Of a DNA stretch of 35,773 bases, positions 27,001 through 30,000 are shown piece by piece; position 1 is the first letter of the stretch; every line of letters begins with the position of its first letter. The DNA is from a virus: UHGV virus genome UHGV-0313710; one strand, given 5' to 3'. A program made the position numbers.

Positions 27001-30000
27001 TAAATCGATTTATCCATTAGATTTTTCATAAAGCTCAGGTTTAAATGGCAACCGTCCGCAAGTTCTATATGCAGCCTCTGCTGCACGTCCTTTTGGAATT
27101 AACTGGCCAGGACGGTTTCGCCACTGATAAACGGCTTCAGTTGTTATGCCGAAAAAAGCAGCAACTTTCTCAATGCTGCCGAAGTAGCTTTCGATATCGT
27201 CAGTCGTCATATGCCCTCCAAACTAAGTTTTATTAGATGTTAATTATCAATCTATCTTAGGTCAATAAAAACTAAGATTACTTAGTAATTAAAGAAATGG
27301 TGCTCCTATGGAAACGGTTGGTCAGCGTATAAAAGCTCTGAGAAGAGTTACCAGAACGTCCCAGAAAGAATTGGGTAAATTTTGTGGAGTAAGTGACGTT
27401 GCTGTGGGGTACTGGGAGAAAGACATCAATGTCCCTGGTGGGGAAGCACTTTCAAAATTAGCGAAGTTCTTCAATACGTCAATAGATTACATTCTTTATG
27501 GTGCGGAGTTTGAAGGCAAACTCGTCACAAACATGCGCAGAGTTCCTGTAATCTCGTGGGTTCAGGCTGGGCAGTTTACTGAGTGCAGGACAGCAGAAGT
27601 GTTTAGTGAAGTAGACAAGTGGGTAGATACATCATTAAAGATTGGTGATAACTCATTTGCATTGGAGGTTAAAGGCGACTCCATGACTAACCCTAACGGC
27701 CTCCCAACAATACCAGAAGGCGCAACAGTGATTGTAGATCCTGATGCAGAACCCCGGCATGGAAAAATAGTCATCGCTAGACTTGATGGAACAAACGAAG
27801 CCACAGTAAAAAAATTAGTTATCGATGGCCCTCAAAAGTTTTTAGTGCCATTAAATCCCCGGTACCCCAACATCCCGATCAATGGTAATTGCCTCATCAT
27901 TGGTGTAGTCAAAGGAGTTCAATACGAACTCTAGCCCCCCTTTTCTCTAACCAAAACACCGAACTAAGAAAAGTTTGGTGTTTTCTCTTGCCATCAAAAC
28001 TAAGTTAAGTTAGATTTTATATCAAAGATAACGAACAGGCAGGACGCCCACGAAGTAGCCGCCGGTGGCATATGAATGACCGGATGATTCGTTAGCAACA
28101 AAAAAAGCGCCATATAGGACGCTTCGCTCTTTAACAATCCTGGTATCCCCGTAACAAAAGAGGGTTCTATGGTCATATTCTGTGCTTACGTTCATCCTAA
28201 TGGATTTTTTATCAGCACCAACCAACAAGACGAATTCTGGATTCTACTTAGTAAGCAGGTCGGATGGGGACGATTCTGTCTAATCCGACCAGAATCAGAA
28301 TTTACAGAGAATGGAGGGCTTTTTGAATTACGTGAAATACGTCCGGCAGATGGTCAAGCCCCTGACCAAGTAATCGAATCGTCAGCTGTTTTATGGCGTC
28401 GGCAGGAAGCGTTCGAAGCTGAGAGAGTAATTTCTTCTTATCTTCAGTCGTGGCAGAAGTAGAACTATTGATGATACGTTCAAGTTCACAGAGAGTCTCA
28501 TCATGCAATCTTATTGTCATAATCCCAAGAATAGCTTTAAGACCTCCATCATCACGAATGAAATCAATTCCATCTTTAGTAATTCTTAATTCAGGAATAT
28601 TTATATTTATGCCATCCAAGTAATAATCAAGAGCATTCTTAATCAAGCCATGTTCTTCGAGATAAATTAAGTTCGAAATTAGGACATTATCATCTCCAAA
28701 TGCGTCACGAACAGACTGCAACGCATCATCAGAAATTTCATAAGGATGAGCATCATACAGTATTTGTAACAACTGCCTTTGTGCACTTCTATCAAATTTG
28801 TCCATCTTAAATAATCACCATGTTATTGGGGGTATCAAGATTAACCGAATCCTTGTTGTTGGGGAATAACCAGGTCCACCTCGCCTGATGTGGCTAAAAG
28901 CAGGCACATAACAGCTAAGTATTTTCAACCAGAGAGAATCCTTAGCGTTGTGGTGAATGCGGCTCAGCGCACGCGGGTTAAGGTTGAGACTGACAGTCGA
29001 CCTTCTGTGGATACCCACCCGCCTGGTGTGCAACCTTCGCCAGGCACCGGGAGGCACCCGGCACCACAACAGCCACTGCTTTGGCGGTACCAGTTTGTAC
29101 ACTTGCTTCCGGCTGGTACCGCTCTTTTTACAAAACAGAGAAGAGCATCACCGGACGACGGGCTCATAACCCAATCCATCCGGGCGGCTGCCACCGCAGG
29201 TGTTCTTCTCTGTTTTGTGGAGAAACCAACCGACCTTGCAGGGTCGATATGATGAGGAGCAGCAAAATGGCTAGCGAACGCAGTACCAACGTGCAGGAAT
29301 TTATCGTAGAACTGGACGGCGGCGTATTTGAAACCAAACTCGGCGCAGTTCTCAGTGAAGTCGCTTCCGGTGCGATGAACACGAAAAACAAAGGTAAGGT
29401 CTCGCTCAACCTGGAAATCGAACCATTTGATGAGAACCGTGTGAAAATCAAACATAAACTCTCATATGTTCGCCCGACTAACCGCGGGAAAATTTCCGAA
29501 GAAGACACCACCGAAACGCTGATGTATGTCAATCGCGGTGGTCGCCTGACTATTCTGCAGGAAGACCAGGGACAATTACTGACTCTTGCCGGTGAACCTG
29601 ACGGAAAACTACGCGCAGCAGGTCATTAATATCGTTCTTAATTAACTGATTATTTATCTCATCACTGAATATCTTTATATAGTGAGGACTTATTATGTCT
29701 CAGAACTTAGACGCAACCGCAATTAATCAAATTCATGCCCTTATTTCTGCTCAGGGTGTTAATGAAATTATCAGTAATATTGGTGCCGATGCTGTGGCAT
29801 TGCCTGAGAATTTCCGCATTCATGATCTGGAAAAATTTAATTTAAATCGCTTCCGTTTCCGTGGCGCGCTTTCCACTGCCAGCATCGATGATTTTACCCG
29901 TTATTCTAAAGATCTTGCAGATGAAGGCACCCGCTGCTTTATCGATGCTGATAATATGCGTGCCGTCAGTGTGCTTAACCTGGGTACTATTGATGAACCA

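Follow-up and report, generated by a model that had tools for sequence, protein, structure and literature searches.

A conserved antisense gene pair in an exchangeable cassette of the early-left region of phage genome UHGV-0313710: a candidate exclusion gene with a possible lytic-phase antidote

The virus genome UHGV-0313710 was analyzed as a single stretch of 35,773 nucleotides (nt), hereafter called the window. An earlier note made from the sequence alone had pointed to an AT-rich accessory gene of 167 codons on the minus strand of its immunity region, the C-terminal part of which overlaps an open reading frame (ORF) on the plus strand. These are referred to below as the large gene and the small gene, respectively. 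The analysis showed that they are two conserved convergent genes enclosed in a mobile cassette, and we are highly confident of this anatomy of the locus. The features are collected in Table 1.

Table 1. Positions in the window of the cassette, its two genes, and the surrounding elements of the immunity and early-left regions.
Feature	Position	Strand	Details
Cro-like gene	27010-27210	-	
OR operator copies	27220-27243; 27269-27292		upstream of cI, between cI and cro
cI repressor	27308-27934	+	HTH_3 plus Peptidase_S24 domains (Pfam)
Hairpin, likely cI terminator	27953-27984	+	13-nt arms, 92% complementary, then TTTTCTCTT
Probable pL with OL operator copy	27988-28020	+	TTGCCA-17-TAGATT superimposed on operator
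Intrinsic terminator of the large gene's transcript	28104-28125	-	8-bp stem, 6-nt loop, U7 tract
Exchangeable cassette	28158-28821		blastn edges against vB_EcoS-569R4; GC 0.384
Small gene	28169-28462	+	97 amino acids; ATG after AAGAGGG
Dual-coding overlap	28302-28462		161 nt; last 53 codons plus stop of each gene
Large gene	28302-28805	-	167 amino acids; ATG start; PHROG 3983
Conserved leader/promoter element of the large gene	28822-28905	-	~85 nt; two direct repeats
yfdP-like gene	29267-29629	+	first conserved early-left gene 3' of the cassette
YfdQ/DUF2303 gene	29695-30519	+	after the yfdP-like gene

The large gene was found as the earlier note had described it, and the ORF lies far beyond chance: PHROG 3983, a family of unknown function, matches residues 1–165 of its product at profile positions 1–164 of 165 (E 2.6e-59). 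The homologues are full-length and 35–99% identical, and a profile search of sequences clustered at 50% identity gave 1,135 representatives, almost all of them 155–175 amino acids (aa) long. The longer family members (190–240 aa) were considered as domain fusions, but those examined turned out to be mis-called starts. Since the N-terminus MDKFDR is conserved, the start codon of the large gene is right. An identical copy of the gene is present in 77 of 5,426 complete E. coli genomes (1.4%). Its low guanine–cytosine (GC) content was reproduced as well. The value of 0.379, versus 0.503 for the window, places the gene in the lowest 2% of windows of 504 nt (only 1.9% are equally AT-rich), and the flank at 28822–29269 has a GC content of 0.536.

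The small gene was then examined in relatives. Seven of the first eight diverged loci have this antisense phase open over a stretch running from 145–277 nt beyond the stop codon of the large gene to 152–218 nt inside it. Each of these loci has an ATG and the conserved N-terminus M[IV]IF.A..HPNGFF....Q.DFW..LS..VGWGRF. A hidden Markov model (HMM) was built solely from the 44 residues of the small protein that are encoded outside the large gene. Applied to 89 genome loci, it matched the right frame in 36 at E<1e-3 and in 45 at E<1, with no matches in the two control frames, and five of five further loci were matched too. Among the IMG/VR contigs, the right frame was matched in 72 of 80 and another frame once. 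The non-overlapping codons of the small gene gave proportions of nonsynonymous differences (pN) of 0.09–0.38 versus proportions of synonymous differences (pS) of 0.75–1.0, for example 0.09 versus 0.82. It should be noted that the synonymous sites of these N-terminal codons are saturated. By inspection, many loci show an ATG with a purine-rich, Shine–Dalgarno-like motif just upstream. The small ORF is mostly 96–123 aa long, with outliers of 80, 91, and 133 aa, and the most conserved residues of its product (V74, L75, W76, and A81) fall inside the overlap.

Within the overlap, codon position 1 of one gene stands opposite codon position 1 of the other. Constraint was estimated from the large gene: its synonymous third positions were scored for identity separately within the overlap and in the rest of the gene. 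The identity was 0.440 outside and 0.718 inside in the enterobacterial subset, and 0.402 and 0.588, respectively, in all loci with the small ORF. The loci without the small ORF lose this extra synonymous constraint (0.413 outside, 0.364 inside) and thus serve as an internal negative control. Resampling of the synonymous codons of the large gene gave p=0.0035 for the frame staying open as observed in the window; across loci, p<0.05 was obtained in 22 of 35. The length of the overlap ranges from 125 to 221 nt in phages of gamma- and beta-proteobacteria. The GC content of the large gene is 0.338 in its single-coding part (28463–28805) and 0.466 in the dual-coding part, and this jump within one gene is a compositional footprint of the overlap. 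These comparisons indicate an antisense overlapping gene pair in which both frames appear to be under purifying selection, with extra synonymous constraint where they overlap.

The same conservation could be ascribed to a single-gene moron, with the plus-strand ORF left untranslated and its conservation produced by an RNA or terminator element together with the constraint on the large gene. That annotation pipelines did not call the small ORF in the records examined fits such an explanation. However, the conserved 44 N-terminal codons lie wholly outside the large gene and show the pN and pS values given above, the HMM matches are confined essentially to one frame (0 and 1 in the control frames), and many loci have the ATG with its Shine–Dalgarno-like motif. 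Moreover, the frame is open beyond chance given the sequence of the large protein, and the extra synonymous constraint is gone where the ORF is absent. We regard the single-gene explanation as extremely improbable. Judged by sequence comparison, the small gene is a real protein-coding gene, and both ORF boundaries stand. The earlier note was right about the existence of the overlap, but not in considering the gene boundaries unclear, as both ORFs are conserved genes. It had proposed beforehand that the conservation of the two ORFs be compared in relatives; the minus-strand ORF is conserved, and the plus-strand ORF is conserved too.

The family of the small protein had no sequence match in Pfam or PDB. 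Weak matches to PHROGs were obtained for 3 of 26 members, involving two unnamed PHROGs (best E 0.0015), and the protein was called in 69 clusters only, none informatively named, among 5.8 billion. The small gene was annotated in none of the GenBank and RefSeq records examined. Because it overlaps a partner on the other strand and gene callers reject long overlaps, a gene family of this kind may well have been missed by annotation.

The limits of the cassette were determined against close relatives, which are 90–99% identical to the window on both sides of it and carry different content between. The homology with phage vB_EcoS-569R4 stops at 28157, 12 nt before the ATG of the small gene, and resumes at 28822, 16 nt before the ATG of the large gene, so that the edges enclose exactly these two genes. 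As the earlier note had supposed, the large gene is accessory: relatives carry other cargo in exactly the same slot. In vB_EcoS-569R4 (L001 2756–3410), the slot holds a different convergent pair, in which a plus-strand ORF of 68 aa (2783–2989) and an ECs1072-family gene (2961–3395) share 29 nt at the 3' end of the latter. This suggests that the slot generally holds two-gene convergent modules. Plus-strand ORFs are found in the same slot of SfV and mEp460_4F5. The 569R4 pair and SfV orf33 were considered as homologues of the window pair and were rejected on comparison.

The frame-specific conservation, the synonymous constraint, and the cassette edges lying 12 and 16 nt outside the start codons lead us to conclude that the two genes are real and linked. 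Two real genes can still be functionally unrelated, namely a lysogen moron and a small lytic gene whose overlap arose from compact insertion, and the 26 of 89 loci where the large gene has no detectable small ORF are in line with this. Such an origin is improbable in our view. The pair stays in the same phase in 72 of the 80 viral contigs, across gamma- and beta-proteobacteria and differing insertion sites, the cassette edges enclose just the pair, and the overlap holds the residues in which the small protein is best conserved.

Directly upstream of the large gene, the conserved element listed in Table 1 contains ATTCCCCAACAAC-like repeats positioned at -62 and -29 relative to the start codon (28867–28855 and 28834–28822). 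The element was seen in the window and in loci L001, L010, L012, L095, L096, and L104–L107. It also precedes ECs1072-family genes, a gene of ~170 aa in PhiR29_1, and, in part, sieB of Hafnia phage Pocitis76. The element looks like an expression platform shared by morons. Autoregulation of the large gene through the upstream CCCCAACAAC repeats was considered unlikely, given that unrelated cargo genes are preceded by this element too.

The large protein was modelled with AlphaFold 2 at a predicted local distance difference test (pLDDT) score of 87.8. The model contains, in order, a winged helix (approximately residues 1–85), a linker, a long helix, and a three-helix C-terminal domain. The linker is poorly modelled, yet it holds the most conserved motif of the family, D86 G87 G88 L89 .. 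A91 I92 L93 (the invariant DDGGL..AIL motif). The best Foldseek matches were PadR structures (E 0.045, probability 0.98), and the best structural matches in BFVD were YjcQ-like viral proteins; the search of the family profile against PDB gave a weak match to 5dym (E 0.68). No structural match was found for the three-helix C-terminal domain, and the structural matches have no counterpart to it or to the DDGGL..AIL motif. The DUF2513/YjcQ and PadR families share with the large protein an N-terminal winged helix followed by a long helix, but are without its C-terminal domain and motif.

At the level of sequence profiles, the protein of the window had no Pfam match at E<=0.1, either to PF10711 or to any other family, PadR included. 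Among its relatives, weak matches to DUF2513 were found in 38 of 133 (E<=0.01, best 4.5e-6) and to YjcQ in 6 of 133, and weak HTH_20 matches occur as well; one extended relative reached 18.4 bits for DUF2513 versus a gathering threshold of 29.6. The kinship with DUF2513 is distant, limited to the N-terminal winged helix, and below the threshold of Pfam membership. The DUF2513-like pattern that the earlier note had seen in the protein holds weakly for relatives, but not for the window protein itself. The profile and structure searches recommended there yielded PHROG 3983 and a predicted PadR/DUF2513-like winged helix; they did not yield a function, and the C-terminal domain stayed unmatched. 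The note's statement that no function can be assigned was borne out in every library searched. No SieB or other named exclusion family was among the Pfam, PHROG, and NCBIfam matches. A literature search on DUF2513, WP_000357060, and phrog_3983 found nothing relevant and no paper mentioning the family, and one phage record labels a homologue 'putative transcriptional regulator'.

The predicted fold also allows the large protein to be read as a PadR-like DNA-binding regulator made in the lysogen, which would repress phage or host genes in a secondary maintenance function or in lysogenic conversion. The small protein would then be an anti-repressor or a lytic-phase regulator, and the overlap would enforce mutually exclusive expression. 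Such a regulator agrees with the winged-helix fold and its PadR/MarR-like best matches, with the weak DUF2513, YjcQ, and HTH_20 matches in the family, and with the label of the homologue just mentioned; modules in which a transcription factor is paired with a small protein are known to govern the fate of prophages (PMC10432266). Several points speak against it. The winged-helix domain is acidic family-wide (median isoelectric point 5.05; 4.36 for the window protein). No module-specific operator was seen, since the cassette ends 16 nt from the ATG and the upstream repeats are common to unrelated cargo. The occurrence of the module in unrelated phage backbones makes a backbone-specific target unlikely, and the published modules of a transcription factor and a small ORF are divergent and non-overlapping (PMC10432266). 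On balance, we consider a plain regulator rather unlikely.

The transcription units around the cassette were examined by comparing operators and terminators. The operator copy at 27989–28019 is 81% identical over 31 nt to the copy at 27212–27242. It is the third occurrence of the operator and lies directly 3' of the putative cI terminator, at the place of which the SfV record has an annotated terminator. The site probably represents the operator OL with the early-left promoter pL. In the Mangrovibacter prophage, operator copies are located between cI and the small ORF (L014 5820–5888). The E. coli NCTC86 prophage has a third copy of a different palindromic operator at L005 19749–19765, and its near-identity to the window begins at L005 19780 (window 28028), just 3' of that copy. 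Operator copies thus precede the same segment in two other immunity types.

As the cassette is situated directly downstream of pL/OL, the small gene would be the first ORF of the cI-repressed early-left transcript. As OL/pL precedes the cassette, the large gene would lie inside the early-left unit in antisense. The earlier note had correctly described the large gene, on the minus strand, as transcribed against pL, on the plus strand. The rexAB-like position it had suggested did not hold, since the gene lies beyond OL/pL instead of between cI and OL and is not co-transcribed with cI. RexAB-type cargo was rejected for the pair for the same reason and because the large gene and cI are on opposite strands. 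The terminator assigned to the transcript of the large gene lacks a U tract when read on the plus strand, i.e., it is unidirectional; it belongs to the backbone and is common to the window and the alternative cassette. The yfdP-like and yfdQ genes downstream are followed by an HD hydrolase gene on the plus strand.

Some further observations were made in this region. Rfam at gathering thresholds found nothing in the window. A full-length sub-threshold match to STnc100 (RF02076; 36.3 bits versus a gathering threshold of 47, E 6.5e-6) covers 28929–29131 on the plus strand, in the conserved GC-rich gap of 461 nt that separates the cassette from the yfdP-like gene. A relationship between STnc100 and PasD, both prophage-borne small RNAs (sRNAs), has been described (bioRxiv 10.64898/2026.05.13.724894). 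An inverted repeat of 25 nt (29130–29154 and 29194–29218, 84% complementary, 39 nt between the arms) ends ~50 nt before the ATG of the yfdP-like gene and could be a terminator, an attenuator, or the 3' end of an sRNA-like element. The NCTC86 prophage, which has an identical cassette and another immunity type, carries a ParA-family gene between the repressor and OL (L005 18453–19529). This gene occupies the true rexAB-like position and has a weak PADLOC match to PDC-M28B (5.7e-9).

Relatives of the cassette were found in at least 568 IMG/VR contigs, and the pair is present across gamma- and beta-proteobacteria in unrelated backbones (lambdoid, P2-like, and GF-2-like). The small gene has the orientation of a lytic operon, which may be the early-left operon, the P2-type early operon, the Q-dependent late operon, or the tail operon at its end. 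The large gene either faces that operon or comes last in the operon of the repressor. Flanking genes were counted in 74 non-redundant loci. The small ORF was preceded by a co-directional gene in 59 of them and by an opposed one in 14, and both flanks opposed the large gene in 41; these counts come from a crude ORF-based gene call and are approximate.

The pair occupies lambdoid early-left operons in the window, NCTC86, Mangrovibacter, and Kluyvera, and early operons of Cox-type Salmonella prophages, where the large gene is again antisense. In PhiR49_2, the large gene is antisense between Rz and terS, in the bor/iss slot. Edwardsiella phage GF-2 has it after an Arc/Mnt-like gene, facing the structural genes, and Acinetobacter phage AbIPP1 directly 3' of cI. 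In P2-like prophages, the small ORF begins 2 nt beyond gpD, the overlap of the pair measures 125 nt, and the large gene is the final member of an operon that runs cI, DUF7424, Excalibur, HEPN-like, large gene. In the P2-like loci L100–L102 from metagenomes (4001–6865), the DUF7424, Excalibur-like, and HEPN-like_int genes stand upstream with abutting start and stop codons, and this repressor operon could be a larger cargo operon expressed in lysogeny. A Proteus sp. prophage (L099, 833–3745) has the order cI, BstA (PADLOC E 7.8e-110), and then the module. The same locus contains a second, diverged paralogue of the large protein at 833–1330 (family HMM E 4e-24), the convergent neighbour of which (1352–1663) is unrelated to the small protein. 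As a first gene of the pL transcript, the small ORF was also considered as an N-like antiterminator; this was rejected, because the same pair is also found in operons other than that of pL, for example behind gpD and between Rz and terS.

In a Klebsiella prophage, the large gene adjoins a DUF4065 (Panacea-type) pair. This neighbourhood, together with the tight linkage of two genes with overlapping antisense transcripts, would suit a toxin–antitoxin or addiction module in which the small protein is toxic and the large protein or the antisense transcript keeps the small gene off, thereby stabilising the prophage. We judge this to be very improbable. The genes are convergent and form no operon, and the small gene lacks a promoter inside the cassette and depends on lytic promoters that are repressed in lysogens, so the two products would rarely coexist. 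Moreover, neither protein matched toxin or antitoxin families in the Pfam, NCBIfam, and PADLOC searches. A type II toxin–antitoxin system in particular was rejected on the convergent arrangement and the lack of a family match in these searches.

The arrangement was compared with characterised prophage systems. The closest positional analogue of the large gene is sieB of phage lambda (34482–35036, plus strand), which is antisense in the pL operon and lies tail-to-tail with N (35037–35438, minus strand). Lambda N and sieB abut without overlap, whereas the window pair overlaps. SieB is a membrane protein, unlike the large protein, which is modelled as a soluble winged-helix protein, and the database searches described above gave no ground for taking the large protein as a SieB. 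Ranade and Poteete reportedly described sieB in 1993 as an exclusion function expressed by the prophage, with an escape function, Esc, encoded by the phage. Esc is an in-frame product of sieB and not of a gene on the opposite strand.

The TERi system of Listeria comK prophages consists of TerI with anti-TerI1 and anti-TerI2 (bioRxiv 10.1101/2025.02.27.640495). The terI gene is antisense in the early lytic module, has its own promoter, and overlaps anti-TerI2 on the complementary strand; anti-TerI2 binds and neutralises TerI, and its transcript also silences terI (bioRxiv 10.1101/2025.02.27.640495). Different genes can occupy the slot behind the conserved terI promoter, and one partner is often unannotated (bioRxiv 10.1101/2025.02.27.640495). 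The window locus is similar in having a candidate defence gene opposite an early lytic module, an overlapping sense-strand partner, and a conserved upstream element with swapped genes. The two, compared by description only, differ in that TERi is Gram-positive, TerI is a protein of 65 aa versus a winged-helix protein of 167 aa, and TerI is also transcribed in the lytic cycle, while the window genes overlap at their 3' ends only (161 nt).

The Tai/Ati systems of tail-assembly inhibition occur in E. coli and Salmonella prophages, phage-inducible chromosomal islands, and P4-like elements (PMC11364771). They combine a moron-type immune gene, antisense in a Q-dependent lytic operon, with a counter-defence gene on the operon strand, an arrangement called a 'non-contiguous operon', and are found in beta- and gamma-proteobacteria (PMC11364771). 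The layout of the class that includes Tai/Ati, TERi, and Tha/Ith, namely an antisense gene in a lytic operon with an adjoining or overlapping sense-strand partner, is present in the window. In BstA/aba, the prophage defence gene bstA lies near cI. Its self-immunity determinant, aba, is a DNA element of 63 bp that overlaps the 5' end of the gene and is inseparable from it (PMC8585504). The partner in the window is a protein gene, in contrast to a DNA element. The large protein had no PADLOC match to BstA, and it was rejected as a member of that family.

Since the same layout is found in the characterised prophage pairs TERi, Tai/Ati, and BstA/aba, we propose that the large gene may encode an exclusion or defence protein expressed in lysogens and the small gene its lytic-phase antidote. 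This reading as a whole is tentative, and its chances are in our estimate somewhat short of even. In the lysogen, pL would be off and the large protein would be made from a promoter within the upstream element. Upon induction or infection, transcription from pL would run head-on through the large gene and shut it by interference and by an RNA duplex of ~700 nt. The same pL transcript would yield the small protein, and convergent transcription would make the expression of the two genes mutually exclusive. The large protein would act on some step in the lytic growth of phages, the small protein would spare the resident phage as a cognate antidote, and the overlap would keep the two genes inseparable by recombination. 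The binding partner of the acidic winged helix could be a phage protein just as well as DNA. The neighbourhood of known defence genes counts in favour of the proposal, i.e., BstA beside the module in Proteus and the upstream element before sieB in Hafnia. So do the contexts that put the large gene on the lysogenic side, such as its last place in the cI operon of P2-like prophages and its antisense position in lytic operons elsewhere. The pair may resemble the class of 'antisense defence + sense-strand counter-defence' in its working; it differs from the class in its new protein families, its 3'-convergent layout, and its conserved dual-coding overlap of 125–221 nt.

A number of results weigh against this proposal. 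We infer from gene orientation only that the large gene is expressed in lysogens. Its sole promoter-like hexamers, TTGATA-16-GATTAT at 28838–28811, are not conserved in relatives and were not taken as a promoter. The predicted PadR-like fold would suit a plain transcription factor equally well. In PADLOC, the large protein had no credible match, only a CARF model at E 0.013, and the NCBIfam and PDB sequence searches gave nothing usable. The small ORF was undetectable in 26 of the 89 genome loci, so the large gene can exist alone, which a gene lethal to its own phage would not be expected to do. The pair is also not Tai/Ati: the hhalign probabilities were 0.3% and 0.2%, and the proteins belong to other PHROGs than TaiEcA (204 aa, phrog_5483) and AtiEcA (76 aa, phrog_20632) of phi80. 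The phi80 genes are divergent with a 5' overlap of 20 nt, whereas the window pair is 3'-convergent.

The cassette could be the founding example of defence genes paired with self-immunity, a widespread family in proteobacterial prophages whose partners are locked together by a conserved antisense overlap, although we hold this to be doubtful. If it is, the pair would be among the best-supported ancient, long antisense protein-coding overlaps in bacteria and phages. Such long overlaps are controversial in prokaryotes, and the window pair offers a comparative, frame-specific test case. Hundreds of phage genomes contain the family of the small gene, which is missing from Pfam and PDB and unannotated in the records examined. 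A convergent, phase-locked overlap could serve as a search signature for further pairs. If the defence reading is true, the locus would be a Gram-negative parallel to the known prophage defence and antidote pairs, built from new protein families, and the large gene may shape the phage susceptibility of the 1.4% of complete E. coli genomes that carry it.

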